Of a stretch of DNA of 64,000 bases, positions 1,341-54,237 are shown in pieces. Position 1 is the stretch's first letter; each line of letters starts with the position of its first letter. Where the stretch lies: contig CP142731.1 of NCBI GenBank assembly GCA_036630325.1, positions 868,001 through 932,000 on the forward strand. The letters are read 5' to 3'. The position numbers and the translations under genes were made by a program. The notes under the pieces were generated by a model. That model made no database searches and had not been told where the DNA came from. It worked only from the letters and a program-made list of their open reading frames with translations. This DNA comes from Vairimorpha necatrix (taxonomy: Eukaryota).

Positions 1341-3847
1341 TATTTTTTCTTTGAAGTAAATATAAATTAACTTGACTTGAGTAATGTTATGTTTTATATC
1401 GAGATAAGGACACTACATGGTGCCGCAGTCGACAGAAAACTTAGTTTACATTACCATAAATTGTTTAAAAACTTTTTATTAATGACCTCAATATAGAATT
1501 TAAACAACCTAATATAAGTTTTTTTAGAATTAATGCTATTACTTTTTTGAAGTTTTCTAATTTAAAATTGAGTTAAAAAATAACAAAATAATTTTTACGT
1601 AACTCATGAAGAATATTTTTATAAATTTGTGACAAATGATAGTACAAATTTCAATGAACCCTTTATTAATAAGTCTTGTTTTCCGAATTTAAAATTTTTG
1701 TGGAAGTTTATCTCATAGGAAAAAGAGAAAGAGTATATATAATATATAAACTGCTTTATATGATATTTGACAGAGAAAAAAATAGATTTTTTATTAGAAA
1801 ACATTATTCTTAATCAAAAAACGCCATTAAACATTTTTGTGCTCACTTTTTATGCAGACAAATAATACATAAATTTGAGTTGAATAAAAATATAGGAAAA
1901 GATGAACTAGACGATCAAGAAAGAAATAACCAAAAAAAATAATGGGACACGTACCGACGTCTTATACACTTAAGTTTTGCATATTATTAAGGCTGAAAAG
2001 TTTATTAATAAAACTATGTTAATAATGGGTTGTTATTCGACACTTTGAAAAAATAGGGATTCTTATTGTGTCAAAAGAGAAGAAAACAATATTAGTAAGA
2101 TGAATAATTATTTGGAACAAAAAAAAGCAAATATATATTTAATAGATATATATATATATATATCAGGAATTTAAAAGTATTATTTTAAAAATGTTTATGA
2201 TTCTAAAAAAGAAGTTGCAGAGTGTATTATGAAATTAATTTTGTTATATATAGGAGCCGAAAATATCATTTTTAATGAATTCGGAAATAAATTTTATGTA
2301 AATCAAAATGAAATTAAAGTGGCGTTAGAATTTACTGAGCACGAAATAAATGATAACAATGAAATTATTGTAGAATAATTATATAATAATTGTCGTATTG
2401 ATCGTATGAAAAAAGCAAAAAATTCTTTGAAATATAGATTAAAACAGATAGAAATGGAAATTAATGTTGCATTCTTAGTTAAGACTGGCTTTGTAGTAAA
2501 TTTTGATGCAAGAGTAAACAATATCTTAAAAAAAAAACCATTGCAATATTTAGTATAAGTTTAAAAAAATTATAAATATGAGGCTTTTCATAAAAATGTT
2601 GATAATCTATATGATATGGAATAGGAACAGAATTTGAAAATAAATTAATGAAAAAAGCTTTTAAAGATCTCAATAATGTGTGGCATTGTGATGTTATTAT
2701 GAAAGAATTATTCAAAGAAATAACAATAATCAAAGAAGATTTAATTTTTGAACATAAGAAAAAACAAGTGAATATTTTCATAAAACATAAAAACCAATAT
2801 AATGAAAAATTTAGCAAATAATAAAGAAAAGCAGTAAATGAATGCTTTTAAGGATCTTTTTATAAGCGATAGTAGGTCTGATATAATTTTTTAAGGTAAG
2901 TGTGAAAATAATCTATTTAAATGCGTTTAATGTTTATAATAAAATTTTGTTCGAAGCTTTTAAAGGAAAATTGGGGGTTTGAATTGCATAATGATTTAGT
3001 AAAATTTATAGATATAAAATATAATCATGACTAAATAAATCATATGATTCCAATGTTTTTTTTTTTTTTTTTGGGGGGGGGGGGTATTTTGGCAAAAGTT
3101 TTCATAAAAAGTATCACTCTAAGATTGATAAAATTAAATGCCTTTATTTTTATGTATTCCTCTGGACTCTCTTATAGCTCTGTAGGGGTTCACATATCCG
3201 AACATTCTTTACGTATTTTTTTCATCATCCTTATATCGCCCTTTTTTTTTAAAAATCTGTTTTTAAAAAATAAATTCCTAAAAATTCATTTTTTGGCAAA
3301 AAAGGAAAAAGTGAAGTTTTAAAGAATATTATTCTATGACATACTATTATGTCAATCTTGTTAATAATCTGGGCTTTATATTTTACAATTTATAGATCAA
3401 GCATTGACTTGAGTATTATAAATTCATAAATTTCCAAATGGTCACTGAAGTTATTCTACCGTTTTTTTGTTATGTATAAAGAATTGGGAGAAGGTCTTTT
3501 CTGACTTATGACTTTTTTAAATGTATTTTAACTTCTCCTGTATTCCATATATTTGCTCAGAATTCTTATTAAGAATAAATGATAGTATTTACGCCTAATT
3601 CCTTGAACTTATTTTTTTGTTTATTATAAGCAATTTACTTCCATAAAAGTCGTTATAAAAACACATAGACCATTGATTTAGTTTAAATAAATATCCTAAC
3701 GTAGCAGTTAATTGTGCTTTGAAATGTTTTGGCATAATTATATTTACTAAAACGTAAAATTTTATTCTTAATATTTTATTTATTTTGTTTTTTAAAATTG
3801 GAATTTTTTCAAGTTGTTTAAAAAAACAATTTCAGTACTACATTTTC

Positions 3848-4640
3848 GGGGTGCCCTTAGCACAGTGGTAGAATGCAATGCTTCCATTGAGCAATGGCTG
3901 GGTTCGATTCCCGGGGGCACCAAAATTGTTTCTACTTTCTATGATGCAGTTGGAACAACTCAGATGATGAAAATGTCCACGATAATCATTAAGTTGATTC
4001 AATGAAACTTGTGTGTGTCCAGCCACGGGGGGATTAGCATCTAGTGTAGAAACGCACCTCAAAGCCAAAAAAACAGTATCACCCCTGTGGTGACTTAATG
4101 ATACATAAATGAATCTAATGGGTACGGCCCAGTTTGAGCCCATGGCTGGTGCACTCTAGAGTGGGATCCTAGAACTAACTAAGAGACTAGACGAAGTAGG
4201 GCAATAGAAGGTCTCGTGGACCCTATCCTACATGATTCTGTAACACGGTGGCCGAAACTAGTGGGAGACAGTGGTCAACGTAGCCCAATAAAAACGCCGG
4301 GCTGGTGATGTGGTCGTGTAAGGAGCCGTGTGTGCAATGTGGATGCTTGTAGATACCTTTGAGTCAGTACGATGATGTCTCTCCTCGGGTTTAAATAGCC
4401 ATCCCCGTTTAGTATATCCGCTGTGAGGTCACTCTGGACGCGATTTGAGGTATAAATGGAAAGTGTTCTCCTGGAGCCAAAGTCCAATGGATACGGCGGA
4501 GCTTGCTGCAACTGGCAAGTTGTATGGTGGGAGTTTTAGTGAGTATGAATCTCATAGTACCAGTTGGATGAGGATCACATTCAAATCCCTCTGGTCCCTA
4601 TGTAAGGTTTCTCCCTACCTCTTACTTTCAAGAAAAAAAA
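3848..4640 (+). mobile_element. tRNA-derived SINE-like element, copy 1
   Basis: tRNA-like head at 3850-3922 (GGTGCCC/GGGCACC stem, A box TAGCACAGTGG, B box GGTTCGATTCC), ~720-bp body, A-rich tail, 14-bp direct repeat TCAGTACTACATTT at 3832-3845 and 4641-4654. Homologous copies at 23.2 kb and 51 kb. Confidence 0.85.
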
Positions 4641-6004
4641 TCAGTACTACATTTCGAGTAATTAAAACAAGACCAATTTTAGTGCTGATCAACCAAATTA
4701 AACCTTTTACATGCTTAAATGAAAAGTGACTTATGTCGACTATGTCAAGCTTTAAGAAATAAATGTATTATGTAAACATCGAATACAAAAAAATTCTAGC
4801 AGTTAATCAGGATATGGTTTTTCATAGCGTCGCATAAATTTAAAAAAGTCTGAAGTTTAAAAATATATAGAAACTATAGGTCTTATGAAAAATTAATTTA
4901 CATTTTAAGGATTGTATAAAGGTATTAAGTAAATCTCCATACACATTATTAAGTGAAATTTTCATATATCTTTTAACTAGGTAAAAACTCTCCACAATCA
5001 TTTTCTCAACGAAATATTGTATACAAGTAAAAGGCGTTCGGATTGTAAAAATTTACTACTAGCTGTTAATTCTTTGAGGATTTTCATTTACTTAGTTTAA
5101 AAAATTTAATAAAGAAGAATTATTTGGTAATATAGAGCTAATAATGAGCAGAGAGCATGATTACAAAAAGTATTGGTTTAAAATTGAAGTATATTAAAAG
5201 TGCAAGTAAATGATGAGTAACATTTGAGATATATACAGGAATATTTTTATTTTATGGTGTAACAATAATAAATTAAGTGCTCTTATTATATTGACTGATG
5301 TAATTAAATAAAATCTTTATTTTACTTCACTAATTCACAAAATGTTTTATTATTGTTGGCATTTGATATAAATGGTGTTAATTTGTTAATTTCCATATTC
5401 GAATAGTATCTATATTATTGATCGTTATGAGTCAGAATCTTATAGATTTACAATTAGTAATGATGGTTTTTCTTCTGGATTTAATCAATAATCAAAAATT
5501 TATCCATTCCTATCGACAGGCGATCTTCCCTGAAATTAATAATAAATGCAATTCATTTATTAAACACAACATTTATCTACAAAAATATATACGCAAATTG
5601 TTTCAATAAATATTAGTATGTTAGATTAAGCACTTTCAATAGATTAATACTATTTGTGTGATTTAACATTTAAATAAAAACTAATAAATATATTTTGAAA
5701 GTTAATAGTGTTAGTTTTTCTAACACGGATCTTTTTTTTATAAACACAAATGTGTGTTTTTTTGCCTTTTGTCATATAGCCTGAATTAATTATAAACCAG
5801 TATAAAAAGAACACCAAGGTCTAAGCACAAAGCAAATAAACTGTTTAGTGTTAATTTTATGGCCTTTACATTTTTTAAACTATTCATTTTATATTTTTCT
5901 TGTATATTAATTATCCTTTAATAATATATAATATTTTTAAATAATTTATGCGATGGTCGAATTTTAATCATAAAATTGGAAACCACCACTTTATATAATG
6001 ATGG

Positions 6005-6832
6005 TTATGCAACCTCATATGATCCATCAAATGCATTTAGTTTTTCTATTTTTCTGGTTATATTTATTCTAATCAAGAACAATATTACTATTAAAGTATA
6101 ACATGATTCTAATATATACAAAAGAACTAAAACATAGATCTTGAAAAAACATAAAAGTATTATTATATAGGAAAATAAAAAAATCCACAAAGTTATTATT
6201 AATATGTATGAAAAAATGTACACATCTTCTTTATCAATTTTGCTATTGTAAACAATATAGTCTATGACCAAACATACAAAATTTATAGCATGAGATACAT
6301 AAAATAAGTGCCTTTCGTTTGTAAAAAAATCTTGCATTATTAAGAAAGTTTGAAAAATCAAAGTTGCTTTTTTACTCGTACTAATCATTTCTTCGACAAT
6401 ATAAAGTTTAAATTTTAAATAATCAATACCTGCTCGTTTATTGTACATATGATAAACTACCTGATTATCTTCATTCATTGTAAGCACCAAAAAAATTATT
6501 GTTATACAATTTACTACAATAGCGATTACAATTTCTGGAACAAATTCATTTATGATACCTAAAAAAATAACAAATAGAAATGAAAATCCTCTACAAAGCA
6601 AAATTTGTAATCTAAAAGCCATACTTTTTATAAAGTAAAATCCGGAATAAAAAGCCATTTCCATAATAAATAAAAATTTTGTAAATGTTAATAAATATTT
6701 TGATAATAGTGTTTCATAATCCTTTCGTCTATGAGAATGCTGATGGTTTAATGCATATTTACTTATTAACATATCTAAAATTAGACTTGAAAAATAAAGA
6801 GTCAGATAAATCACGTGTTCCAAAAATTTCAT
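6005..6832 (-). CDS. Multi-pass (7-8 TM) membrane protein, family member 1 (subfamily A)
   Basis: 275-aa ORF with repeated hydrophobic segments, CCCC upstream of ATG, and family motifs SKYLL, MExxFYSGFYFIK and YNKRAGxD shared with the other paralogs. Confidence 0.9.
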   Translation of the reverse strand: MKFLEHVIYLTLYFSSLILDMLISKYALNHQHSHRRKDYETLLSKYLLTFTKFLFIMEMAFYSGFYFIKSMAFRLQILLCRGFSFLFVIFLGIINEFVPEIVIAIVVNCITIIFLVLTMNEDNQVVYHMYNKRAGIDYLKFKLYIVEEMISTSKKATLIFQTFLIMQDFFTNERHLFYVSHAINFVCLVIDYIVYNSKIDKEDVYIFSYILIITLWIFLFSYIIILLCFFKIYVLVLLYILESCYTLIVILFLIRINITRKIEKLNAFDGSYEVA

Positions 6833-8622
6833 TGGGGATAATATAAGAAATAAAATTTTTTAAATGTCATAACAAAAATTTAACTTTTTTTTATACTGCA
6901 TATTATGCTGTTATTTCAGTATAAAATGTGATTAATGTGGATTTAAGGATATTTTACTATCGAATACGAAATTCGATTTACATTTTCTATTTTCGTTTAA
7001 TGGATTTAATAAGGCATTTAGTTCTTAGGTTTTTTTAAAAGTTCTTTTTACTTAAATGTTAATAAAATATTCAATAGTATTACATATAGTCTATGACATA
7101 ACGTTGAGTAATTTTATGTGATATAATTGACATTTTAAACAAACATTCGTTTTTTATCCATATAATCAAATTTTCTGGTTTAAAACTAGTATATTATACA
7201 AATTAATACAATTCCTTTCATTTCTTCATATGAAGATAAACGTGCATGATCTTAAGTCTATAAAATTTTATGTGAAGATCATCACTAAACTTTGCTATAA
7301 GTGTTGAGTTTTAAAGATCTCTATCACTGCATTTATCGGGGACCTCAATACATCAAAGTTTTATTAAATGGTATGACTACATGTAAAGATATAAAATGTT
7401 GTAAAATAGGTGTATACATTAATTGTTTTTGTGTAATTTATGAACATATTGCTAAAATAAAGTAAATCATATTTTTTAATTGTAATAATGTATGCAAATT
7501 TTGTTTTTATTTACATTTAGAAACATGTTAATAGGAGTGTTGCAGAATATATAATAAATATTGAATGTGCTATTAAATATTATTTAAATAGTGAATTTGA
7601 AATTTTAGTATCTAGTATTATGTTTGTTAAATCAAATGACAACGATTTATTTGTTATTATATATTAACCAAGTATTTATCTATTTAATTTATAAGAGAAA
7701 AGTATAAATTTTAACATCGTTGTACGAAGTAATCAAAGTGTTGAACATTCAAGGCTTAGTTCAAAATTATAATATTGTACAAATGATAAAAAATTATACA
7801 TAAATTACTATAATAAACCTATTTCATGCCATATTTGATTTATAAATTAGTTTAGGTGTAACCTGAACTATATAAAATAATAAATGTGCAAGATTTAATA
7901 TGGGTACCATGATAATGTTTGTTTTATAACAATAAAATACAGTACAAATAAAAATAAATTCTGAACCAAAAGGCAACAGTGTGTAATTGCATTTATATTT
8001 TTAAGTTAGGTATCGTAGGCTTTTTACTTGTTATAAATTCCATCTTCCTATACAATTTAAATGAAAAATTAATCAACGTCATAAAATTATTCTGCTTATA
8101 AAATGGTCAAGAACAAAAATCAGGGATTCTAATAGATACATTCAACTAGAAATATAATTAAAACATAACATTATTACTTTTGATTATCGCAAAATATTGA
8201 AATTTTCAACGAGGTCACCTATTATTTTTTCCTTTGTGCTTATAAAACTGTCTCGCATCCAATTCCCGGATATTTTCCTAAAAATTGCACCCCGATTTAG
8301 TTTAAGAAATTTGATATTAGTTTTGACAATGTTTAATGCATAACTTTTATTTTATCTTGATTGGCTCATTTCTATACAAGTCTCGTGGCTTGTCGACAAA
8401 AGTATGACAATGATGAATTAGTTTTATTAGACAAAATAAAAAATGAAATGATGATAAAAGTTGGAACACTACTAATAACCTTATACTTGTATAAAAAGTG
8501 AAGCTAATAAGGATGATGTTCTAATCGACAAATTTCCTTGATATATTCAAATTTGAGTTTGTATAAGTATCAATATGGAAGATCATAATTACATATTGTT
8601 GGACGATTTTTCAAATAAACAA

Positions 8623-10424
8623 TGTCGCAGTTAGTAGAGGGAACCAGTTAGTAGAGGGAACCCTAAAAAAGAGCTCTGTGGGGATCGAACCCAGGACCTC
8701 TCGAAGAAAACAAAATTTACTAAAAAAGGAAAAAAAAATATTATTAAGAAAATACAGTAACATTATCCTTCAATTTTTAGTAAATAATTTTTTGTTTTGT
8801 GGGGTTATGAGAATAAAAATGGACAATGATAAAAGACAAGAAGTTTATAATTTTTTTATTATATGGTCAGCTGCCACCAACGTTGTTGGACAAAGTTGAT
8901 CGTAAAAATTTTAAAAGAAAAGCTGAACGTTTCATGTTGTTTGAAGAAAACAACAATGGAAGTTTTGAACTAACTGTGAGGTTTAAAGTAGATCAATATA
9001 GATCATTGAGATTCTTTACAACCAATGAGCAGCGTTTCAAACTGGATTTCATCAAACTGATTCATGTTTCTAATGGACATCCTGGGCGTGACAGATTGTA
9101 TCCATTGTTACAATCAAAAGTATACGACGTTACTCAAAACGAAGTACTGAGAGTTTTGAAAAGTTGTGATATTTGTCAAGCAAGAAGAAACCTAATAACT
9201 AGACCAGTTATTAGACCAATCATTTCAAAATATCCTAGAGAAAGGTATATTGCTGATTTGATTGATCTTCGATTGTATCACGAACTCAATGATGGGTATA
9301 AATGGTTACTTAACGTAGTGGATTCATTTACCAAGTTCTGTTGGACGGTTCCATTGCGTGACAAAACTGGCATTAGTGTGCGTGATGCCTTTGAAACACT
9401 ATTCAATACGTTTGGATCTTGTTTTATACTTCATACCGACAACGGTAGAGAATTTGTTAATCAATATATCGTGAATTTATGTGTAAAGTATGAAATAAGA
9501 CATGTAAGAGGAAGAGCTAGATGTCCTTGGATACAAGGACAGATAGAACGATGCAATCAAACAATAAAATGGATGATTGCATCTACTCTGAGGTCGAAGA
9601 ATATCTTAGGGCAATGGTCCATAGTACGCCAAGAAGTTACCTGGGCATATAACAACTTAAGGCATTCAACAACTAAACAAACTCCATTCAGTTTAATGTT
9701 TGGTAAGCCCATTAAAGACATAATGCAAGAATCTAGAATCACTGATATAATAGATTCGGTTGCAAATAACGACGAAGTTGAAAATGAGGAAGAAGCACGA
9801 AGAGAAGAATTTGTTTTTGAAGAAAATAACGTCGTAAATTACGAAGAACTATATGCTTTAAACAATGAAAATCTTTTTTTAAATGAAATTTACCACGAAT
9901 CTGCACGGTTTAATACTCAAAATGCTGCTAATAGAATGATTGAAAGAAGTATGTGGAGAAATGACTTTTACGAATATAAATTGGGAGATAGGGTTCTTAT
10001 AAGACCATATTTAGACAATAATCAAAGTACTAGAAGGCTTCCTCTATACGAACATTTGGATGTCGATGTATATATTGTAATGGATATACTTCAATTTAAT
10101 AAAGTAAAGTTATCTAAAGAAGCTGATCCATTGGTTATTATAGAAGAAATTTACACTAGAGATCTAAGATTGCTTGATAACGAATAAATTTTTTAAAAAG
10201 TTGTTTATTTTATTTTTTTATTTCTTTTCCCTCCAAATTTATATAAAATTACTCGAAATATACCCCATAATATAATTAGGACAAATTTAGAACCGTCTCA
10301 AAAAAGTCGTTCATTGTGATTGTATTCCTTCGAGAAGTCCCAAGTTCGATTCCCACGGGGGTCTTTTTTAATAAATTTTTTTAGGGTTCCCTCTACTAAC
10401 TGGTTCCACCAACTAACTGTGACA
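8623..10424 (+). mobile_element. Ginger/TDD-like DNA transposon (Gypsy-type integrase, TIRs)
   Basis: TGT...ACA ends; imperfect TIRs of ~85-95 bp containing a tandem CAGTTAGTAGAGGGAAC unit; 5-bp TSD AACAA (8618-8622, 10425-10429); one integrase ORF and no RT. Confidence 0.85.
8826..10187 (+). CDS. Integrase-type (rve) DDE transposase
   Basis: HHCC motif (HVSNGH...CDIC) and catalytic core ADL / HTDNGREF / GQIERCNQTIK. The true start may be ATG 8819 with a frameshift in the T7 run at 8851-8857. Confidence 0.9.
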   Translation: MIKDKKFIIFLLYGQLPPTLLDKVDRKNFKRKAERFMLFEENNNGSFELTVRFKVDQYRSLRFFTTNEQRFKLDFIKLIHVSNGHPGRDRLYPLLQSKVYDVTQNEVLRVLKSCDICQARRNLITRPVIRPIISKYPRERYIADLIDLRLYHELNDGYKWLLNVVDSFTKFCWTVPLRDKTGISVRDAFETLFNTFGSCFILHTDNGREFVNQYIVNLCVKYEIRHVRGRARCPWIQGQIERCNQTIKWMIASTLRSKNILGQWSIVRQEVTWAYNNLRHSTTKQTPFSLMFGKPIKDIMQESRITDIIDSVANNDEVENEEEARREEFVFEENNVVNYEELYALNNENLFLNEIYHESARFNTQNAANRMIERSMWRNDFYEYKLGDRVLIRPYLDNNQSTRRLPLYEHLDVDVYIVMDILQFNKVKLSKEADPLVIIEEIYTRDLRLLDNE

Positions 10425-10831: not shown

Positions 10832-12011
10832 GGCGCTATTAGGAAAATCGCCCCCTTAAAAAAATAATTATTTTTTATTTAGAAAATTTTATTTGATAAC
10901 TATGCATTTTTGTTATTGTTGAGCAAATGCACGAGGAATTGAATATTTTTTCTATATTGGCAATGTCTCTTACGCCAAAAAAATTCTTCCAAAAATTTAG
11001 CGATACGGTCATGATTTAATCCACTTCTTTTTCTATAATCGTGTTTATAGTGGGACCATAAATTGTCAATCTGATTTATATGTCCTCCCTCGTTGTTTAC
11101 AAACCCAATGCTATGATTTACTATCTCATGCTCAGATCCAAAATTGGCCACTGCTTTGGGGTATGATGGGTATCCATCAGTAACAAGAATAGTTCCAGGA
11201 AGTAAATGTTTTAAAACGCTTCTAGTAAAGTTTCATGCTTTCTGTTAGGAATTAATGAAACAAAAAAATTAGTTCCATAACCTTCTACAACTCCTCCAAG
11301 TATCCACTGTATATTAGGAGTATCGTCGTGTAGAGATGACGGAATATCAATCACCAAGCCATTGCATATTGCAGTTTCATCGACTTGTACCCTTATATTT
11401 TCTCTCCTATCTGTGCTATATCGAAAGGAGTCTCGCTTATAATGTCCATTAGAATGTTTTTAAATTCAATGTATGGGGATTCGGCTATTTTACAAAAATT
11501 GATAGCTTGATAATTTGAGTAAGAAAAGATCCAACAATATAAACACCTCAAATGTTATTTATATTCTATAGTCAATTTTATTAAATTTTGTGCTTTTTTT
11601 CAAACTATATTTTCTTTTGCACCTTTTTATTGTACATCTGTACCCCTTCCCATCAATAAAGGAAGAAACACTAGCAATTGACATGTTTCCATGACATGAT
11701 TTTGAGACACATGGAATGGTAGGCTTTATTATTCCCAATTCTACCAGAAGGGCAATTGCGAGATCATTATCTTGGAATATAGGATTCCAAGGGTCAAGTT
11801 CTCCTACCTTTTCCAGTATTCTTCCTAACATGAAGAGCAAGAAAAATGTGAAAGAAAAGTGAAAAAAGACCATTGCTTTGAAAATCGCACCCCTAGTAAA
11901 AAATTTGCAAGAAAGTACAAAATCGAGAGATTTTTTTTATTTTAAAGAAATAATAATTTTTTTTTCTATGCATGTTTTAGTAAGGGGGGATGCGATTTTC
12001 CTAGTAACGCC
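10832..12011 (-). mobile_element. Decayed Merlin (ISXO2/IS1016-like) DNA transposon, copy 1
   Basis: TIRs GGCGCTATTAGGAAAATCGC / GCGATTTTCCTAGTAACGCC; broken transposase with a Cys-rich N-terminus, VQVDETAI, TDGYPSY and VNHS..FV..EGGHINQIDNLWS motifs. No clean TSD. Confidence 0.85.
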
Positions 12012-12944
12012 AAAAAGTTAAAGTTTTTTATGAAAATTTAATCGTGTTGAATTAGACTTTGACCGAAGATAGACTTTTTGATACGTTCAGAATGTACAAA
12101 TAAATTAAAGTCAATGTTTCATTTTTAATAACGTAAAAAAACCGTAGGTATTTCATGACTAAATTAATCATTGATGTTCATTGAATCAAGCAAAGCAGAG
12201 AGAATTGGGGACCTCGGTATATTTTTAGAGAGATGGAGAACACAAATGTTCTTTTGAATATTTTATCCAATCGTCTACGTGTTTGGGTGGAATATACCTA
12301 GTTTACATTATTAGTTATTGATTTGGAAATATTTATTATATAAAGTAACTTTTCGATATAGATAGAGGCTTCTTTTTATGCTAAATATTTGAATAGAGAT
12401 GTAATTTTTGGATTAAGAAGAATGCTTAAAGTTAATAATTTCTTTTAAGTAAATTATAGTACAGATATGATCCGATCCATTCTATATATTGCATAGTTTA
12501 TTGTACTGTATTTATCAAAACAAAAACGTTGATCAAATTAGATACTTTTATTTATAAAATAAGACCCAAATTTGAAACGATTTATAAATTGCGCAGATTT
12601 TAAATAAAGAACCAAAATTTTATTCTTTTTTTTTATGGGGGGCTTAAAAATATTTTTATATTTATTAGTTTGCATCATTTACTTTTCGTTGTCTGTCTAT
12701 GTATATGAGGCTTAATATATCTACTCGTGAATATTCACGAATTAATAAAATTGATGTTAATTCTCGTTAAAGCAAACTTATCACAAAATTAAAGTATATA
12801 TTTATACGAGTTAAAAATAAATATTTACTGAATGTGTAGACCTTTAGCTGAGCATTTCAAAAAAGAATAAAATCTGATGATTTATATTTACAAGATGATC
12901 GAAAGTATAAATATAGATTATAAGCCACCGTATATTATAAATGC

Positions 12945-13766
12945 TTATACAACTGCGGATGTTCCATGAGTATTTCTGCGTTTGTTTATTTTTCTAATTA
13001 TATTTGTTCTTATTAAGAAAAATATAACTATAAAAGTATAACTAACTTCTAATAGAAATATCAGAATCAATTGATATACCTTATAAAAGCACACCAATAC
13101 GATTAACATGGACAATCCAAAGATCCACATAGATACTATCACAACATAAGAAAAAATATAAATATTTTCTCTTTTAAAATGGCTCTTAGAAACAAAATAA
13201 TTAATTGTTAAACATGTCAAATTTATGATGTGATATGTATAATATTCGAGCTCTTCTTTTGTAAAAATATCTTGCAATGCATAGAAAAATTCCCAAATTA
13301 ACGTTACTTTTACACTTGTATCAATCAGTTCCTCGACAATATATAGCTTAAATTCTAAATAATCGATACTGGCCCGTTTATTGTACAAATGGAAGACTTC
13401 ATCATTATCTTCATTCATTGTAAGTGCTAAAAAAATCATTGTTATACAATCAATCACAATTCCAATTATAACCTCTGCGTTCCATTCATTTATTATACCC
13501 AAACAAATAACAAATAACAAAGAAATCCCTCTACAAAGCAAAACTTGCAATCTAAAAGCAATACTTTTTATAAAGTAAAATCCGGAATAAAATGCCATTT
13601 CCAAAATAAATAAAATTTTTGTGAATATTAATAGGTATTTTGACAATAATATCTCAGAATTGTTATGTAATTGAGTATGATTTAGAATGTAATTGCTGAT
13701 AAACATGTCTAAAATTATGCTCGCAAAATATAGAGTCAGATAAATCATATGCTCTAAAAATTTCAT
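12945..13766 (-). CDS. Multi-pass membrane protein, family member 2 (subfamily A)
   Basis: 273-aa intact ORF, CCCCAAAA before ATG, closely similar to 40094-40915. Confidence 0.9.
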   Translation of the reverse strand: MKFLEHMIYLTLYFASIILDMFISNYILNHTQLHNNSEILLSKYLLIFTKILFILEMAFYSGFYFIKSIAFRLQVLLCRGISLLFVICLGIINEWNAEVIIGIVIDCITMIFLALTMNEDNDEVFHLYNKRASIDYLEFKLYIVEELIDTSVKVTLIWEFFYALQDIFTKEELEYYTYHIINLTCLTINYFVSKSHFKRENIYIFSYVVIVSMWIFGLSMLIVLVCFYKVYQLILIFLLEVSYTFIVIFFLIRTNIIRKINKRRNTHGTSAVV

Positions 13767-14882
13767 TTTTGGGGATATTCCAAGTGAAATTATTTGTTAG
13801 TAATATAAACAAAAAAAGCAGACCATTATGCATTTAATTCAATTAATTTAATGATTATTTTATAAAATACGATTCGTTTATATTATACGCCTACTACAGA
13901 ATCAACTCAGCTAAATGTTATTTTGGGTCATATTGATATTAAAAGTTTAGAAAACGTGAGATAATTTTTACAAATGGTCTATGACGCAACGCCGATACAT
14001 TTACGTTGAAAGAAGTGACATTTCTCGCGTAAATTATAGGATAAGCGTTTGTAACATTAAATGATTTTTAGTGAATTTTTTTTTATGCAAACTGAACTTC
14101 ATTTTCACATGGGCGAATATTAGTTGCAAATCTAAAATAATTAATATCTTTTTCATAAAATTTTACTTTATAATTTACACATGCTGTTGACCCTATTTTT
14201 TCAAGACTTAGTTCTAAGATATTTCAATGCTTAAAATTCGTCTAATTGATTCTTGTGCGTATCATGTCAATTATGTAAGCATGAACTATTTAATATTAAG
14301 AAACATTGACAAAAATTATAAGTTTTAATTTACTACAACTTATAGAATCTTATTATAGATATCTGTTGATTATTTGTACATAATTTTTTAATGTAAAAAT
14401 AAAGTTGTTGAAAACTCCTTTCTCAATTAATGTTATATTTTACACCATTGTTTATGTATCTTTAACTATAGTCTGTCCATAAAAGTGATTTTTATTTCTA
14501 TTTCTAAGTATTTTGAAATTTTATTTTTTTTTATTATCATTGCGTAAATGTAAGGTGATGAGTTCTTGGTATGAATATATATATGCCACAAATTAATAAG
14601 CGTTAGTTTGTTTGAAATTTTACGATGCTTATTTTCAAATCTTATAACGATTAGTATTTTAGTGTATTATGTGTACAAAATTATCATAATTTTCATTGTG
14701 ATTGGTTAATTTTAAATCTTAAATTAGCATCATTATTTTCATTTATCGAAGTAGAAAATAAGAATTATAAGGTGAGAGAAGAGTTTCAAAAGAGCACAAA
14801 TAGCTAATACAAAAAAGATAAACACCGCGTTGTAAAAATAACAACCTACTAAAAATTCTTAAATATTGTTTATAATCATAAT

Positions 14883-15796: not shown

Positions 15797-16618
15797 CTAA
15801 CATTCACTTGGCATTTGAAGAGAACTATTAATCTCATTACGTTCTTTTATTTGAGTAGTTATGTTTAATCTGATTAAAAAAATACTGCTATCAATGTGAA
15901 ACAAAATTCCAATAAAAACACAATGATCAAACTTATTACATTAAAAAAAATAAAAATAATATCAATGCTGACACCCTAGTAATCCATATGACACAAAAAT
16001 AATATAAGAAAAGTAAAAAATGTTTTTTCTATCAATTCTGCTATTACAAAGAAAATAATCTTGTCAAGACCTATAAAATTAAAAATATGAAATAATTGTA
16101 GTTCGTTTTGTTCATGTAAACAAATATCACGCATTATTAAAAATGTTGCACATATCAAGCTTGCTTTTTTGCCTGTGTCTATCATTTTGTCAATAATGTA
16201 TAGCTTAAATTTTTTTAATCTACACCTGCTCTATTGTTATAAAAAGCACGTCATTGGCTTGATTCATTGAAAGCATCAAAAAAATCAAAGTAACACAATG
16301 TAATATTATGGAAATTACGATTTTCGAAAAGGCTTTGATTAAGATACCAATAAAAATTACAACTATCAATGAAAACACCTACAGACCATAATTTGAAGTC
16401 TGTATGTAATTTTTCTTATAAATAAAATTTCGAACAAAGGCAATCTCCAAAGTAAATAAAATTTTTGTTAATGACAATAGATACTTAGACATTAAAAATC
16501 TACATTCTTTGTTTTTACATAGCAGAAATTGAGTAAGTGCGGAAGTTGTTATTGACATATCCAAAAATAAATTCGCAAAATGCAAGCCAATATAAATAAT
16601 ATGTTTTGAATACTTCAT
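15797..16618 (-). pseudogene. Frameshifted pseudogene of membrane family (subfamily B)
   Basis: ORF fragments 16379-16618 and 15976-16185 match the intact paralog at 42202-43038; several small deletions break the frame. Confidence 0.9.
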
Positions 16619-19139
16619 TTATGGGTATTAAAAAATCGGTTTTATATTTGTTTTGTTGATATTAAATGTATGTTTGTATTGATAAAATATTTTTAAAAAC
16701 AATTATTAATTTAAAAATAATAAGAATAAATTTTACATATAAACAAAAAGTTTTAGGGTATATATATAATTTTTTCTCAAAACAAAAGTTTAAGGAGTTT
16801 GTTCAGTATTTTTTTTAGTATTGATCTATAAATATTATGAAAATATATTATTTTCCTGTAAAAACTGTTATAATTTGATCATGCATGATTGACAGGTAAT
16901 AGAAGTAACATTAAGAACAAACAATTAAACATTGAAATATTTTTTTGACAGAAAAATTTATAGCCTTAGAGTATGAGGTGTAAAAGATTATTAAGAAATA
17001 TGTAAATAGTTAGTACAAACCGATTAATAATTATTTAAAGGCTTTACACATAATTTGCATCTATATGTTTCGAAATGCAGACGCTTTATGAATAGGAAGA
17101 AGTATGTTTCGAAAAAAACAAAACTTATAAAACTTATAGTCTGTGTGTAGTTTGTGATTGGAGAATAAAAATTAGTTAAACATTAAATTGTGACATAGTT
17201 TATAATATTAAACAAGAAAGAGACTTTCATAAGCAACATGTATACAATAAATAATGACTTATGAGGTTGGAGAGAATTATTTAACACATATCAAAATAAA
17301 TTCGTCTTACTAAATTTTAAAAAAATTAGGAAAACAATTAATATGTGTATTTAGGGGACCAAGAAAAATCTTTTCTTTTTTTATGGCATAAATGCTCGAA
17401 TTTAACAAAAAAACAAAATTATTATGAATATAGCTAAAGGATAGCAAAGTAAAATTCTAAGAATTTTTTATAAGAATAATTAAAAAACCCGACAAAATCA
17501 CATACTTTAATTTCGTTAGTATGAATATAGTTTGTATTGTTACTGTTTATTGGTTTTTTCATCTTCACATCCTTCGGGGCATGTTTCCACATGTGTATGT
17601 AATTTGGGGAGTCGCGTATATTTCTTTAAAACATAGCAGGCAAAAATGGAGAATACATATTTACAGTGTTTTCTAGTCTCCAGTGCAATCTTAATACCGT
17701 TAGAGATATTTTTCTTAACAATATATATTTGAAAAATTTATTTCTAAAAGTGATAATTCTTACAACATTTATTTTTTCTTTTTTTATTCAGACGAGTTTA
17801 AACTAAAATTGGCCATAATTTATAATTGAAATTGATTTAAATATTTAAGTAATTGATTGAATAAAAACAAAAAAAAATTTAAGCATAAACTTAAACAAAA
17901 TATTAGTTTAACATTAAAAACTAAATACAATAATAATAATGCGATGCATTTTCAATTGTCAACTAAGTAATTCACTTTTTTTATAAATATTATATATCCA
18001 TTCACTTCAAGACAATATAAATAGCAGAAAATTATCATAAAAACATAAAAACACCATAATAAATTATCTTTTCATTAATTCGTTTAACATAAATTTCATT
18101 AGTCAATTTTTCGATTAAATGTTTAAAAATAACGTTATATTTTTTTTGTAGAATTTTTGTAATATATCATTTTGCTGGTTTTTATAAAGTAATCTCCAAG
18201 TTTATCATTTCTGTTTAATATATTCTATACTTTGACAATTAATTAATAAATTTTCACCTCTTCATAAATTCGTTGATTTATAAAGTGAACTGTTTCGTAA
18301 GTACAATAATTTTGTAATATTCAATTTTAACTGTTTTTTAAAATTTTTTTTTATTTTTGTGGTACTTTGATTCTATGCAATCACATGTAAGTATATATCG
18401 AATAATCTCAGTATTGCAATCAAGGCTTAAACTGAGGTGATATATAAATACTTTTTGTCTGTAAATTTTTTAAATATTAATTGTATGTTTTTGTATCTAC
18501 AATTATATCTATAAAATTCTTATGTCTTTTTGCTAGTTTTATTTTCACTATAGCATTTTTGTGGTGCACAGATTTAATCAAAGCACATCTTGGCTTTTAT
18601 AAAAACCAATACAAAATATAATTTTTTATACCAATCTAAAACGTTCACAAAGTCTATAGCTACCAAAACTACATTTATGCAAATTAAAGACTATTAAAGT
18701 ATAGATACCTTAAGGATATCAATGTAAAGAGTACTATAGACAAAATTTCGTACCGTTGGAAAAAGAACTAAAATACGGAAAAAAGCTACGAAAAAGTTTG
18801 CAGGTCTAACTTGTTTTTCATAGTTTAAACTTGTGTTATCCATTAATAAACTGAAAAAGACAGTAAAATTCGAAAAAATATTAAATTCACTTAAGATGAT
18901 TGAAAATATATTTTTTAATTTTCTTAATAAATGTTTATAAAAAAGTACTCAAAATTATTAAAAAAACAAAACAAGTTTACTTAAAATTACTAGAATGATT
19001 AGATTCTTTAGGTACTATTAATACGCCATCAATCTTGTTTACACATTTTTCTTCCATTTGAATGGATCCTCTATTATTACAACATGCATCAAAAAATAAT
19101 AAGCCAAGTTTTAACGTTAGAATTACTGTAAATATAAAT

Positions 19140-20757
19140 GGTGACCGGAATTTTCGTCCCGGTGGTAGGGGTTAAAAAAATAAAAAAATAAAAAATCTCG
19201 GTTTTTTTATTTTTTTATTTTTTTAACCCCTACCACCGGGACGAAAATTCCGAAAAAAATTTAAAAATAAAACTTTAATATTTCAATAATTTCAAAGACA
19301 AAATCTAAACCAAACCCTTCATCCACAGTTTTATTCAAAAAATCAGCTAGCCGAATCTCTTTTTCAATGTATTTTTGTTTACGTTCAAAAACATGATTTA
19401 AAATTGTTTGTTGGATTATCTTGATTCGCACTATATCTTCTTCATCCTTTAATTTGCTCACTAATAGATAAAAACTGTATCTACTTGTACCAAATGTGTT
19501 TTTAAAGGTATTATGCCAACCTTCAATCGCATTATTAGTTCTTGGAAAATCTATATCCATATTATTTCTCGTATGCCACAAATTCGGCGGAAAACGACAT
19601 CCTAAATCAATATAATTTGTAAAGAAATAGGCATATAACTCAGTCAAGCATTCAGGGAAATTTCTGTCTTGTTTTAATTCCAAAAAAGTAGACAATATTT
19701 CGTCATATTCAACATATGCAAGTGCCGTAAGAGACAAAACAAATTTTTTCACCATAGGTGAACATGTGTAAACAGAAGAAAGTCCTGAACTTTTAACACG
19801 TCTATCAATAGCCTTGGCCAAGTGAAAAAGACAACCCGAAATTTGACAATCCGGGAAAATTATTGAAAATGCTCTTATCGCAGCATACTCAAAATCGGTT
19901 TTTATCAACCTTGGGTTGAGCTCTGGAAACCTTCTCTTTAACATTTGAAACAAAAAAAAATAGGTTTCGAAACTTTTATCTTTTAAAATTGCAAATATAA
20001 TCGGAAATACATGCGCTTCACGGATAAAACTAATTGTGTAAAGTTGATAATATGGAATTGGAACCACCGTAAAGGTCCCATCCATCGCCCACATGTCATA
20101 TAGAGCCAGTTTTTCCATGGCCGAATCTGTATAAAAAACTATTATACTGTCATTGGGTTTATCACTCCCGTAATTTTCAGGCCCATATCGATACCATTGT
20201 TCGCCTGTATGACTGATTAATAAATCAGCACATAAACCCAATGTTTGGTTGGCGTATGGTTTTGGATTAAAGAAATTTAGCCTAGCTTTCCTTAATATTC
20301 TCGTAATAGGCTCAATAGGGCCTATTGCGGCGATTGTTTCTTCACCAGCTCCTCTTAAGGAAGAAAAAAAAATGTTTCTAGGAGAATCTTTGCCAGAGAT
20401 AATTTCCCGTTTCATTTTATCTATTTTATTCTTCCTACAGACCTGTTCAGGATTTGGTTCATGATTATGAGGCGAAGAAATAATAAAGGATTCGAGATTA
20501 TTGACGTAAACAATACTACTAATGGCCTTGGCATTACAGCTTCGTACAATGCAGCGCCACTTTATAGTAGTATTGTTGATTCTTTTTTTCTCGTAAATAT
20601 ATAGATTTTCATCTATTATTTGGTCCATATTTCTTTTGCTTTTGATTATCCTTTTTGTCCCGGTCATAGGGGTAAAAAATTAAAAAATAAAAAAGTTCGT
20701 TTTTTTTATTTTTTAATTTTTTTAACCCCTATGACCGGGACGAAAAGACCGGGTACC
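19140..20757 (-). mobile_element. Mutator-like (MULE) DNA transposon, copy 1
   Basis: 1618 bp, near-identical inverted copy of 51933-53550; each end is a long palindrome; the flanks show no TSD. Confidence 0.92.
19261..20667 (-). CDS. MULE transposase with FLYWCH-type zinc finger
   Basis: 468 aa with WRC..C..HNH, MDGTF, TDFE, CLFH and RTNNAIEGWH motifs. Confidence 0.92.
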   Translation of the reverse strand: MTGTKRIIKSKRNMDQIIDENLYIYEKKRINNTTIKWRCIVRSCNAKAISSIVYVNNLESFIISSPHNHEPNPEQVCRKNKIDKMKREIISGKDSPRNIFFSSLRGAGEETIAAIGPIEPITRILRKARLNFFNPKPYANQTLGLCADLLISHTGEQWYRYGPENYGSDKPNDSIIVFYTDSAMEKLALYDMWAMDGTFTVVPIPYYQLYTISFIREAHVFPIIFAILKDKSFETYFFLFQMLKRRFPELNPRLIKTDFEYAAIRAFSIIFPDCQISGCLFHLAKAIDRRVKSSGLSSVYTCSPMVKKFVLSLTALAYVEYDEILSTFLELKQDRNFPECLTELYAYFFTNYIDLGCRFPPNLWHTRNNMDIDFPRTNNAIEGWHNTFKNTFGTSRYSFYLLVSKLKDEEDIVRIKIIQQTILNHVFERKQKYIEKEIRLADFLNKTVDEGFGLDFVFEIIEILKFYF

Positions 20758-21649: not shown

Positions 21650-21756
21650 ACAGTAATTTGTAATCTATCATATTATTGACATAAAAATGGAGCAATTTTT
21701 TAAACGTACACTAAGTCTTTGATTTACATAAAAATTTTACAATTTTTTTATATTCA

Positions 21757-22572
21757 TTAGTCAAAAAATATATTCAGATCCTCTGTATCAACTTCAGACA
21801 ATCTAAATTCGTCACGATTTTTTATTTTGTTAATATTTTTGATTTTACTATATAAAATAATACTATTAAAGAATAACAAGCTTTCAAAACAAATAACAGA
21901 CTCTTACAAATGAAATCATAGAAGAAGGAAATGACGACTATTGCAGACAATCCTTAACACCACATAAATATGAATATTTTAAAGGAATAGAAGTTATAAT
22001 TTTTCTTTATTGATTTTCATATTATAAAAAATATAATCCAAAGACAACACTAGAAAATTTAAAAGATACAAAATAAAACTCTTGCTTATTTTGTGCGCAT
22101 ATATCGTTGACAGCTAAAAAACATAACCATATCAATGTTGTTTTTGCTCGTACTTATCATTTCATCAAAAATAAAACGATTAATTTTTAAAAATATAAGT
22201 TATGTTCTTTTATTATATGCATAATGCAATATATCTTTATGCTGATTTGTAGTTATCGATATAAAAACTAATTTTATACAATGTAATATAATAGATTATA
22301 CAATTTTTATAATAGATTAACACATCAATCCCATAAAAACTATAAATATAAGAGAAAAAGGCTAAAAATTCTATAATTGGAACGATGTTATTTCTTTTTA
22401 TAAAATAAAATTACATTTTCATGATGTAAAATTTTTTGTGAATGTCAATAAATATTTTGACATTTCCAATTTGCTTTCAGCTCTTTCACATGGGTATAAT
22501 TTGCCTATTAAGATTTTGTAATCAATATACTTAAAATTAAACTTAAGGTATAAAATGAAATATATGTTTATT
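21757..22572 (-). pseudogene. Decayed pseudogene of membrane family (subfamily C)
   Basis: Nucleotide-level match to 47071-47922 with many stops and indels; the 5' end is interrupted by an insert at 22573-22911. Confidence 0.85.
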
Positions 22573-22911
22573 TGTAAATTTTTCTGCCGTGTTTACCGGA
22601 GATCTTGCCAGTTTCAAGAAAGCATTCAGTTTGCTACGGTTTGGGGTGCCGTGTTTACCGAAGTTTAGATAGATAGAAGGAATAAATTGTTCTTGTTATA
22701 AATAAAATTTGGTTTATTTGAATCATAGAAGGAAATGTTTGTTAGTGTTCGGATGCTGTACCATATCGTTGATGTATTTTCTTTATTTATATTACATAGT
22801 AACTAATAGAAGGAAATTAGATGGTCAACCACAACCGATCGTTCCGAAGAACAACAGCATTTTGTTTTTATGGTTATTTATAGATCACGTGGGATGATCC
22901 ATTATACCGCA
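22573..22911. mobile_element. Solo-LTR-like insertion
   Basis: 339 bp absent from the paralog, TG...CA ends, flanks TTATT/ATATT (4 of 5 match), internal repeats TGCCGTGTTTACCG x2 and ATAGAAGGA x3. Confidence 0.5.
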
Positions 22912-23240
22912 ATATTATTTTTGGGATAATAAAAAAAAGTTTATCAGTGTAAATTGAAATCATTAATAGTAAAGAAAATCATAATTGATTTAAAATATAT
23001 TATTCACAATCAGAGTGATATGCCCCTATATTAAACAAAGACGATATATAAACAAAGAAAATCATATTTATTATAAACACAGAATGATAAAATAAATAAA
23101 TCATAACAAATTGATAAATTTCAAGTTATTAAAAGTTTTAAATATCGGTCTAATATTAAATGAGCACAGTTTCACATTAAAGTCACGATTTTCAAAGCTT
23201 TTGCATATCTCGTATTTGATTATCACCCTTAATGCCGTAA

Positions 23241-24030
23241 GAGGTGCCCTTAGATCAGTGGTAGAAGGCAATGCTTCCATTTAGCAATGGCTGGGTTCGA
23301 TTCTCAGGGGCACCAAAATTGTTTCTACTTTCTATGGTGCAGTTGGAACAACTCAGATGATAAAAATGTCCACGATAATCATTAAGTTAATTCAATGAAC
23401 CTCATGTGTGTACAGCCACAAAGGGATTAGCATCTAATGTAGAAACGCACCTCAAAGTTAAAAAGCAGTATAACCCTTGTGGGTTACTTAATGATACATA
23501 AAAGTATCTAATGGGTACTGCCTAGTTGGAACCCATGGCTGGTGCTCTCTGGGGTGGAATCTCAGAGCTAACTATGAGCCTAGACGAAGCAGGGCAATGG
23601 AAGGTCAAGTGGTCCCTATCCTATAAGATTCTGTAAAGCGCTGGCCGAAACTAGTGGGAGACTGTGGTCAACGCAACCCAACAAAAACGCCGGGCTGATG
23701 ATGTGGTCGTGTAAGGTATCGTGTGTGCAATAAAGATGATTGTAGGGACCTTTGAGACAGTACGATGATGTCTCTCCTCGGGTTTTTTATAACCATGCCC
23801 GTTAAGTATATCCGCTGTGAGTTCACCCTGGACGCGATTTGAGGTATAAATGGGAAGTGTTCTCCTGGAGCCAAAGTCTAATTAAAACGGCGGAGCTTGG
23901 TGCGCCGGTAAGTTGTATGGAGGGAGTTAAAGTGAGTAAGAATCTCACAGTGCCAGTTGGATGAGGCTCACACAAATCCCTCTGGTCCCTATGTAAGGTT
24001 TCTCCCTACCTCTTACTTGCAAGAAAAAAA
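23241..24030 (+). mobile_element. tRNA-derived SINE-like element, copy 2
   Basis: Full-length similarity to copy 1, A-tail, degenerate TSD (CACCCTTAATGCCGT / CACTTTATGCCGT), empty paralogous site near 48240-48252. Confidence 0.85.
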
Positions 24031-27000
24031 CACTTTATGCCGTGGGCTTCTATATGTTTTTTTTGCTTCAACTATTTTTTATTTCAAAATTTACATTTTT
24101 TAAGCATCAGTGTTAGTAGTTATATAATTTCCAGTTTTTATATAATATTTTGATACAAGCATCTAACAGGCTATGTCTTCAGAATTTATAAAAATAAAAC
24201 TAGAATTGTTCTAAAATATACATAGATTACCTTATATGACAAAAAAATCTTCTAATTTTTATTATTTATATACTAATTAATTATTTTTAATGAATTTCAT
24301 ATTTAATTGTTTTAATATAAATTTACAAAAAATCAATTTCTATGTAAAATTGGTCATGACCTATTAAACCGCTTTGAAAATTTGAAAGGACTCCTAAAAA
24401 ATGACAATGTTGGTAAGAAAAAAATTTGTCCCAAATAAAAAACTTTTTTATAAACAAATTTAAGTTCATTTTAGAAAAAAAAAATAAATAATGCATAACA
24501 ATTGTGTGCCTTACTTGTTCTGTGTTTAGTAGAAATGCGGCAATTCTCCTTGAGGAATTACAATATGTATCACTAGTTCTAAGGTAATCATTATCATTGG
24601 TTGCATATGATGCTGCACTAGACAAGTCACCGGTAAGAGTACAGGATTGTAAGTCACGTCATCAACGTAGTGACTATCACGATCCTAGATAACAATACCA
24701 TACAAATTATAAGAATTAGGGTTCTTTCCAAGAAAATTATCGGCCCAGACATGAAACAAGCCAGGACAACACAATGAGTACCCTTTAATGTTCCTCTTGT
24801 CTTTTTAAATTTATGAAAATCGACCCATATATCATCATCTTTATTTATCTAAAATAAAATACCAAGTTTTTTTTTACAATTTTTTATAAGATTGATGATT
24901 ATCTAAACCCGTTCCAAACGGTCATGTATCGTAAAATTCTATATTTGCTTAAGATAATTGATTCGAAGCATTGTTATTCACCAAAAACCTTTTAAAGTTA
25001 ACTAGAAAGGGGCCATTGGTACGACGTATTTGGAGCTATTATTACTTAAAAAACTAATGTGATCAGATTAAACAATGTTTGAACCTTGAGTCTTTTATTT
25101 ATTATAATTATAAAAATAATTACATATAAACTTTACAAAAATCTAAATTTAAAAAATCTACATTTCTAATATATAAATTTCAAAAAATTTGTTAAAACCA
25201 TAATTTATTTTTAAAGGTTTAATATTAGTAATTGTAACGGACTAGCGTTGACCCCCTATGATTTCGTCCCCCCAAGCAGGATTGATACTCTAGGAATTTT
25301 ATTCACTTGCAACATTGATACTTTAAGTATTTCAAGACCATGCAAGCACGACCCCTAGGAATTTTCATTCCAGTGCAGGCATTGAACTTCAAGTTTTAAT
25401 TAAAAAGAACCAACTGCATCAAAATATAATAAAATATGAAAATCATACAAACTGAATTAGAACTAACGAGCTAAGCGCAGGGAACTCATGGGCACACCAC
25501 TTCAATATGCATACTAAAAAGATTAATCTATATCTAAAGAAATATTTGCATGCTGAATTAAATAGATAAAATGATTTTACCTTTCAAAAATCTATTTGAT
25601 CACAATAATTTAGCATTAATTAAAAACCTTGGGCTTACGTAATTATTTAAGAAAAGCAACAAAAAAAGTTAAAAATTCTAGCAATTATCTTCGTATGTAG
25701 ATTACAATATATTAAATAATTAACCCAATGTAAAAAACAAAGGGTTTTCATAGTGAACAGCTTACGTCAACGGAGGTTGAATGTGGAGCTTTATCAACCT
25801 CATAATAGAGTATTAACAGCTTTGAATAATCAGGCAATAGTCCTCCTTAAAATCTTTGGACACTTAAGAAATGTCGTCTCCGAATGAATCACATATTATA
25901 ATCGCAACCTTTTAAAAATGTACACAGTCAGTATTTCGGTTTTTAAAGTTGGAGCAAATTTTAAATGGTTAAATTATTATACGCGTATAAAAGTTTAAAA
26001 TTGAGTTTAAAGGATTTTAACAATCATAAATGTGCATTCTAATTTCGTTTGAGCCTTTTTATAAAAAATTAAAACAGGAGAGAGGCTACAAAAAACCTAA
26101 AATTTTTATTTACAATATAAAAGGTCCCCATACATCTTCAAATGTTTGATAAATAACATTTAATCCAAGTATAAATATTCATGTGTATAATTTGTTGTTG
26201 TTAAACATAGTAGACCGCGTCATCCTCGGTATACAGACAAATATTAAGATTTTAAGAAACTTTAACCTGAACAATACAAAAACTTTTCTCTAAAGAAATT
26301 AAATATTAGCCTTTAAATTTTTGAACCGAATTTGAAAATGAACAGCATTTTACTTCTTTATACAAATTTTTAAACTGTAATTGTTCCAAACATTATGCGA
26401 CAAAGAGGTAATATTTAACTTATTTTTTAAAATATAATGATCATATTTTGTTTTTACAGTATATAAGGATAATTCTTAATTGAATATATGAAAAAATTAA
26501 AATTATACTTGAAAAAAAAATTTGTTGCGTCGATTAGTGTTTTTAAGAAAAAACTTTTTCTGATATTGTTGATTATAATTACCTTGCAAGAATAGATTGC
26601 CATTCTTTAGTCAATGTTTCATGTTTTACTTTTAAAATTGGTGACGGTTTCATTAAGCTACAGATTTTATTAATAATATTAAAAGAATTAAACTAAATCT
26701 TCTATTTTAGTATATCTGTTCGATCACAGAAATTCTCTCAATATAGTGAAATGTAAAACTGAAAAAACAAAACATAATTTCTCTATGTCTAGGCTAAATA
26801 ACCTTTAAGATTTAAGAGCAAATTATAAAAATTAGGTTGTATTCCTTTATTTTGCATTTTTTACGATAAAGAAATTGGATGCAACGTTTTCGCGCCACAA
26901 TTATTACTTACATTATTTCTAAGCATAATTTAGAGATTTTTTTATTTAAATTACAAAATTTAGATCGTAATTATATTTTTTTTGTTATTTTGAAGATAAA

Positions 27001-54236: not shown

Positions 54237-54237
54237 T

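Follow-up and report, generated by a model that had tools for sequence, protein, structure and literature searches.

What is the GC-rich, non-coding unit that occurs three times in a 64,000-nt stretch of Vairimorpha necatrix DNA (hereafter the window), and which protein has moved it? The element is a tRNA-derived SINE family. With a probability of about 0.72 we read it as a stringent-type SINE, with a tail that stems from an ancestor of a LINE here termed LINE-2, and moved by a LINE-2-type protein. Three non-LTR families were found in the genome, namely LINE-2, an APE-RT element termed LINE-1 and an RLE-type LINE, and the argument below concerns the relation of the SINE to each of them.

Structure of the element in the window

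The first copy occupies positions 3850-4640 on the forward strand of the window, as a tRNA-headed, A-tailed and non-coding retroposon located between exact 14-nt target-site duplications (3832-3845 and 4641-4654). The initial annotation had placed the element at 3848 to 4640; the end was recovered, while the element proper begins at 3850. From 5' to 3' it is composed of a tRNA-like head (3850-3922), a non-coding body (3923-4466), a LINE-derived tail (4467-4632) and a run of eight A residues (4633-4640), and the SINE has a total length of 783 nt. The GC content of this copy is 47% versus 24% in the flanks, the longest Met-initiated frames are 51 aa on the forward and 98 aa on the reverse strand, and stops interrupt all six frames of the SINE consensus, congruent with the previously claimed GC-richer body free of a credible open reading frame.

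The body contains no Rfam family at gathering score, and 100-nt windows outside the head and tail fold no better than shuffles (z about -1.6 to +1.2). Neither does it (consensus 76 to 610) match the LINE-2 sequence, scoring 36 versus 31.7 +/- 3.2 in a comparison that covers LINE-2 without its 5' part. No source is apparent for 3923-4466, whereas the last 165 nt are LINE-derived by homology. It may be argued that the unit is a functional host structured RNA with the copies as processed pseudogenes, as the GC content is high for an AT-rich genome and some islands remain conserved even in copies that have fallen to 66% identity. The missing Rfam match and the unremarkable folding of the body speak against this, as do the successive subfamilies, the nested and recombinant copies and the LINE-derived tail described below, and we regard a host RNA as extremely unlikely.

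Two further copies are present on the forward strand, as the initial annotation had stated. Copy 2 (23243-24030) is 88% identical to copy 1 and is framed by 10-nt target duplications with one mismatch (23229-23238 and 24034-24043). Its empty site was also verified, the target being present once at ~48243-48252 (forward strand) of a paralogous block. Copy 3 (~50959-51702) is old, with 66% identity to copy 1 (E 4e-34), and retains exact 11-nt duplications (50946-50956 and 51706-51716). The A tail and target duplications ascribed to the copies are thus real. The targets of copies 1 and 3 (3837-3846 and 50948-50956) have nine bases in common while the wider flanks do not align, a likeness that is probably due to chance.

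The family across the genome

The genome searched is AT-rich and comprises 15.0 Mb in 12 contigs. The genome-wide count that had been put forward as a check returned 134 matches to a 23-nt tail pattern and 114 to a 24-nt head pattern, with zero for the reversed controls, and both patterns undercount old copies. The family amounts to over 100 copies, corresponding to about 0.6-0.7% of the genome. For further analysis we used 80 full-length copies, defined by distinct upstream flanks, a set that was collected by similarity and hence is skewed towards young copies.

Exact duplications of 9-16 nt (mode 14) surround 46 of these 80 deduplicated copies, compared to a mean of 0.24 and a maximum of 3 by chance (100 flank shuffles of the same 80 copies), and hence the duplications noted in the window extend to other members of the family. 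Among the 46 copies with a duplication, 34 have 1-4 additional bases where the 5' end joins the flank, usually a single A, and no target-site consensus was seen across the 46 sites. Most copies are full length, with few being 5'-truncated, nested or interrupted. Phage records gave no match to the SINE, and metagenome contigs no exact match to the head pattern. In one further run (X1), which may not be independent, contigs cover the element alone.

The identity of the 80 copies to the consensus ranges from 66% to over 98%, in agreement with the long-lived activity suggested from the three copies of the window. At the young end stands a subfamily, A2, that occupies 17 of the 80 sites with a mean pairwise identity of 98.7%, 29 of 136 pairs being at least 99.5% identical. 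Exact duplications are found in 15 of the 17 copies, and the median tail has 19 A residues versus 9. A2 and the main subfamily disagree at 13 of 73 positions in the head and at only ~11 of 710 in the rest of the element, and the A and B boxes of A2 are nearer to the box consensus than those of the main subfamily. Thus, A2 is very young and has a remodelled promoter head. Such young, duplication-marked insertions might help to tell strains or chromosome sets apart.

Several individual loci illustrate how the copies have been combined. A young SINE, flanked by a 12-nt duplication, interrupts another SINE in its T arm (L171:939-2548), two extra heads stand in tandem ahead of a full copy (L015:2290-2452), and L183:750-1530 represents a recombinant between the A and B lineages of the SINE. 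Copies at L144, L158 and L185 are interrupted by 0.9-1.2-kb insertions with 8-9-nt duplications, which are probably DNA transposons.

The tRNA-like head and transcription

In the head of copy 1 the 7-bp acceptor stem and the T arm are intact, while the D and anticodon arms are irregular. It contains an A-box-like (3858-3868) and a B-box-like (3901-3911) Pol III promoter motif on the forward strand, assigned by the box consensus. ARAGORN calls tRNA-Met(CAT) at 3850-3922 as well as at the head of copy 2 (23243-23315), and the Rfam tRNA model gives 27 bits (E 0.003). This falls short of the gathering score of 29 bits, and so the head is not recovered as a canonical cloverleaf with a regular anticodon loop at that level, whereas host tRNAs score 55-75 bits among the 63 matches listed. 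A tRNA-like head with A and B boxes, as first proposed, is nevertheless borne out by these data.

The parent tRNA had been considered ambiguous, and it is. Among the 50 host tRNA calls compared, Ala(TGC) comes nearest to the main head and Leu(TAA) to the youngest one, and since either leads by small margins only, sequence likeness singles out no parent. A Met identity was rejected, with host Met(CAT) genes scoring 29.5-34.5 versus 66.5 for Ala(TGC). SINE heads of this type therefore constitute an annotation trap, ARAGORN labelling them tRNA-Met.

Fungal Pol III termination needs T5 or longer. T5 runs are nearly absent in young copies (0.075 per copy), and a T4 run is present within 90 nt downstream in 60 of the 80 copies; together with the preserved boxes, this indirectly suggests transcription by Pol III. 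An alternative is that the element is a SIDE-like, internally deleted or read-through derivative of a LINE, in which the tRNA-like head would serve 5' processing rather than promotion. The acceptor stem and T arm, the parts of the head read by processing enzymes, indeed remain paired whereas the D and anticodon arms are variable, with 13 of 73 head positions separating the two young subfamilies; the 5' ends of the copies fall sharply at the first stem base, and the head weakly matches the mascRNA model (25 bits, gathering 42.5). A head that serves processing is nonetheless difficult to reconcile with A and B boxes that are kept, and are nearest to consensus in the youngest subfamily, or with the avoidance of T5 runs, and a LINE origin with a body unmatched in LINE-2 (its 5' part being outside the comparison). 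We consider such a derivative very unlikely.

The tail derives from a LINE-2 ancestor

LINE-2 was first seen as a 39% match in a search of the genome for reverse transcriptases. Its match to the SINE begins at consensus position 619 (window 4467) and extends to the 3' end, with a local score of 108 versus 24.0 +/- 3.6 for 300 dinucleotide shuffles (z 23), and 107 of 151 aligned bases are identical over the last 165 nt. The tail of copy 1 (4467-4632, forward strand) is homologous to the last codons of the LINE-2 ORF and its 3' UTR (G000:C6:721036-724440), and a match to LINE-2 is likewise seen for the diverged B lineage of the SINE (z 9). As tail donors, LINE-1 (z -0.6) and the RLE LINE (z -0.1) were rejected for want of homology. 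A match between the tail and a LINE 3' UTR had been proposed beforehand, and LINE-2 supplies it.

One frame of the SINE reads FSWSQSPMDTAELAAP, to be compared with the protein ends VSWSQSSMSTAELVAP of LINE-2 and FSWSQSPMGMAELDAP of its V. ceranae homolog, the latter being 79% identical to LINE-2 in the region searched. The protein end in the SINE frame is closer to that of V. ceranae than to LINE-2, and the capture of the tail thus appears to be old, predating the present LINE-2 sequence. LINE-2 moreover ends in poly(A), as opposed to the T-rich ends of LINE-1 and the RLE LINE, and a solo LINE-2 fragment (L241) is SINE-like in having A8 and a 12-13-nt duplication with one mismatch. Judged from this homology, a LINE-2 ancestor contributed the last 165 nt of the SINE, which represent the end of its ORF and its 3' UTR.

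We also considered whether tails without a listed head, 33 of the 100 tails listed (of 134 matches), might be hidden LINE ends. This was rejected, as the 32 headless tails and window copy 3 all have SINE sequence upstream, and none LINE coding sequence.

A folded module in the tail

In the SINE (z -3.0) as well as in LINE-2 (z -2.7), the terminal 100 nt have a fold that is more stable than that of shuffles. In copy 1 the predicted module spans 4526-4619 on the forward strand, with a closing stem (4526-4533 with 4611-4619), a U-rich linker, a predicted 5-bp hairpin with a 7-nt, T-loop-like loop (4539-4555) and further hairpins. For the four-stem fold, covariation across 12 SINE and LINE-2 rows is not above shuffles (50-183 of 500 being as high), and RNAalifold on SINE/LINE-2 rows keeps the closing stem alone.

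We then turned to relatives of LINE-2, a scan for which yielded 19 metagenome loci, with the ORF end placeable in 10. A descriptor of the linker and hairpin, written after the tails were seen, matches 4 of the 19 loci (4 of the 10 with an ORF end), each time 16-77 nt past the stop, and was found nowhere else in 149 kb or in 20 shuffles. Each of the four loci has its own, different closing stem, whose partner strand immediately precedes the A tail, and in a fifth locus the motif recurs with an enlarged loop. In eight rows (SINE, LINE-2 and four distant LINEs), picked for the motif after it was seen and hence not blind, four of the five hairpin pairs display double changes and none of 500 shuffles reaches the score. 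The covariation in these distant LINE relatives thereby supports the predicted hairpin. Young SINEs retain the LINE-2 tail motif intact, and the module represents a compact candidate for the feature by which this little-studied lineage of LINEs chooses its RNA.

The tail of copy 1 furthermore matches the model of the Drosophila R2 3' UTR (RF00524) at 19.7 bits (E 0.13), the gathering score being 38 bits. The other tails scanned, namely those of LINE-2, of a second and an old SINE copy and of three distant LINEs, gave no match to this model, and so the resemblance to R2 is weak, a lead rather than a sign of membership.

LINE-2 and its rivals as candidate motors

Four copies of LINE-2 were found in the assembly: one 5'-truncated, one broken and two 350-nt end fragments. 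The truncated copy has an open frame of 1092 aa, lacking the ~380 N-terminal residues of the V. ceranae protein. Neither a full-length LINE-2 nor the N-terminal 380 aa were found in searches of this one assembly that scored 77 of 97 and 35 of 116 candidates, such that a copy could be missed, and the LINE-2 5' part does not occur in 243 loci (933 kb). Full-length homologs are present in the V. ceranae cluster. The two end fragments (L241:1312-1658, 92%, and L242:398-738, 80%) are independent and begin at the same LINE-2 position, which may reflect a short derivative family or a favored stop point.

Regarding its affiliation, Pfam detects an RT in LINE-2 and, with weak scores, an APE and a zinc finger. 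As L1 and R2 proteins of solved structure match LINE-2 about equally, we give it no clade name. A quick tree of 32 rows places LINE-2 and the V. ceranae protein with elements of Smittium, Nematocida and metagenomes (SH-aLRT 99), with LINE-1 apart.

The truncated copy retains an open frame, which suggests that LINE-2 was recently active from another source, for example on a different chromosome set. According to the account in PMC10759460, V. necatrix is a tetraploid whose four sets each comprise 12 chromosomes and ~15 Mb, and the 15.0-Mb assembly can consequently hold only about one set. An active LINE-2 source thus probably resides on another chromosome set of the tetraploid host, or has been lost lately. 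We infer the present motor of the young SINE burst, with no intact one visible in the assembly.

LINE-1 exists in ~20 copies with at least 95% RT identity, many with intact frames, a 1242-aa ORF2 and an arrangement in tandem arrays. It is accordingly conceivable that the recent SINE copies were moved in trans by LINE-1 via the A tail, a partner switch that would leave the SINE and the ancestry of its tail unchanged. LINE-1 is plentiful and intact while LINE-2 is neither, and LINE-1 duplications (14-15 nt, two cases) overlap the range of the SINE. Moreover, both long LINE-2 copies are located inside LINE-1-type arrays and joined without duplication, which fits an RT that jumps to foreign RNAs, and an old SINE fragment is likewise found without duplication within one array (L119). 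The longer A tails of the youngest SINE subfamily point in the same direction, albeit that young SINE copies carry longer tails in general and these would be expected anyway. On the other hand, the SINE has no sequence in common with the LINE-1 tail, LINE-1 ends in T runs, and the LINE-2 tail motif is intact in young SINEs. The sole apparent co-insertion of the two, arranged as target-SINE-target-LINE-target (L115), was rejected as one event; it represents two insertions with the SINE first, because the empty site exists in three paralogs and the LINE duplication includes three A's of the SINE tail. On balance, mobilization by LINE-1 is unlikely. We hold still more doubtful the combined proposal that the tail is a deeply conserved RT-recognition module common to fungal and microsporidian APE LINEs and insect R2, and that the SINE has survived the loss of its cognate LINE from this genome and now depends on the unrelated, T-tailed LINE-1 for copying.

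The RLE-type LINE was weighed in the same manner. With at least 150 matches in the genome, an intact 1199-aa frame and 10-15-nt duplications in 8 of the 15 copies with both ends, it would be a candidate motor, and duplication length fails to separate the three LINEs. Its T-rich end however shows no homology to the SINE tail, and its duplications begin in AT-rich sequence that overlaps its own tail, a pattern absent from the SINE targets. A role of this LINE is highly improbable.

Returning to a LINE-2-type protein as the motor, the following sequence of events is proposed. Pol III would read the SINE from the A and B boxes of the head, pass the body, which has no T5 run, and stop at the next T run of the flank. 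The tail, which by homology goes back to a LINE-2 ancestor (a single-ORF APE-endonuclease/RT element with poly(A)), would in its partly supported fold form the handle that the LINE-2 protein grips. The protein would nick DNA without clear sequence preference and reverse-transcribe the SINE RNA at the nick, presumably by target-primed chemistry. An 11-15-nt duplication would remain, often with one or two untemplated bases added to the 5' junction, and such products are indeed observed among the copies. In this manner successive subfamilies would have spread over a long time, the latest very recently with its remodelled promoter head.

The two T-tailed LINEs display additional peculiarities. LINE-1 and the RLE LINE, though unrelated, both end on the sense strand in AATAAA and subsequent T-rich runs in place of poly(A). 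The head-to-tail arrays of LINE-1 are long, and the T tail joins a truncated next copy (loci L111-L130; L051-L070 for the RLE family). A second non-autonomous unit of ~500 nt has the LINE-1 3' UTR and repeats inside arrays (L112:4860-5900, L114, L119, L122 and L030:100-620), and its GC-rich 5' end might be a ribozyme. A mobile family consisting of SINE-B plus a LINE-1 tail was also considered and rejected, as the copies have common flanks; the composite goes back to a single old locus that segmental duplication has multiplied.

Other features of the window

The window holds several further repeats. A hydrophobic protein family of ~285 aa is locally expanded on the reverse strand (6005-6859, 12945-13796, 29228-30088, 40094-40996, 42202-43038 and 47071-47946), with related repeats near 15800-16650 and 21730-22580, and Pfam gave no match for the one member scanned. 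Two MULE/FLYWCH transposons (19138-20757 and 51933-53552) are 99.9% identical in opposite orientation, marking a very recent move, and their terminal repeats are themselves palindromic. At 8623-10424 an integrase frame (rve, H2C2) is situated between 48-nt inverted repeats with TG...CA ends, which by its look we take to be a Ginger-type DNA transposon. There is also a gypsy-like pol region (36785-39473), the 3' part of an RLE-type LINE (63531-63944, reverse strand), a 1.1-kb repeat in two inverted copies (10926-12012 and 31928-32997) and a 615-nt element with inverted ends (46446-47061). Among host genes are a true tRNA-Cys gene (53875-53946, reverse strand) and the eIF2-gamma gene (54178-55539, forward strand).

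Comparison with known systems

Microsporidia are a standard example of genome reduction, and the transposon surveys searched do not mention SINEs in the portions covered. The term is absent from the main text of PMC10759460, PMC12449221, PMC7313128, PMC4202319 and PMC13174016, where repeat libraries in the supplements may contain the family without a label. In the relevant passages, PMC11585130 states that its genome has no SINEs, PMC13702014 gives SINE as an automatic repeat class in a figure, and PMC6190962 has the word only in a reference. In the papers covered, no description of a microsporidian SINE-LINE pair was found. The design is that of an ordinary SINE with tRNA head, body and LINE tail, and the pair seems undescribed in microsporidia. 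With over 100 copies and an identified donor LINE, the family indicates that a full SINE/LINE system, recent bursts included, runs in microsporidia.

The closest parallel is offered by stringent SINE/LINE pairs, for which recognition through a common 3' end is presented as an established rule in PMC3414825; PxSE5/PxLINE1.1, a lepidopteran 5S-headed SINE with a tail shared with a LINE, is an example outlined in PMC8010984. As far as these accounts go, the shared traits are a Pol III-type head, a non-coding body, the 3' end of one LINE, an A tail and short duplications. What sets the present pair apart is the microsporidian host, a common stretch of 165 nt that includes the last ORF codons, the total length of 783 nt and an assembly in which no intact partner LINE was found.

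Fungal SINEs are similar by description, being long, tRNA-headed or SINE-like and present in tens to ~160 copies per genome, as listed in PMC5063351: MgSINE (472 bp), mgsr1 (800 bp), Egr1 (700 bp) and EGH24 (900 bp), and also Foxy and AfuSINE2. The initial annotation had deemed the element long and SINEs uncommon in fungi and their relatives. At 790 nt it is long, but judged by that list it lies within the fungal range (700-900 bp examples) and SINEs are known in several fungi. The difference, again by description, is in the partner, which here belongs to an APE-RT lineage common to elements of V. ceranae, Nematocida and Smittium.

Finally, in the model alignment the tail of copy 1 has the same order of parts as the Drosophila R2 3' UTR (RF00524), with a closing stem, a UUUUA linker, a 5-bp hairpin followed by A, more hairpins and the closing strand, and a small core of the R2 3' UTR is what the R2 protein binds, as outlined in PMC10499050. 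R2 is nevertheless an RLE element, whereas LINE-2 is an APE element. The SIDEs of R2, in the description available in PMC3414825, resemble the SINE in being non-autonomous and in carrying the folded 3' end of their partner. They differ in their 5' end, a LINE-derived ribozyme, and in that SIDEs are not made by Pol III, as opposed to the tRNA head and unrelated body seen here.
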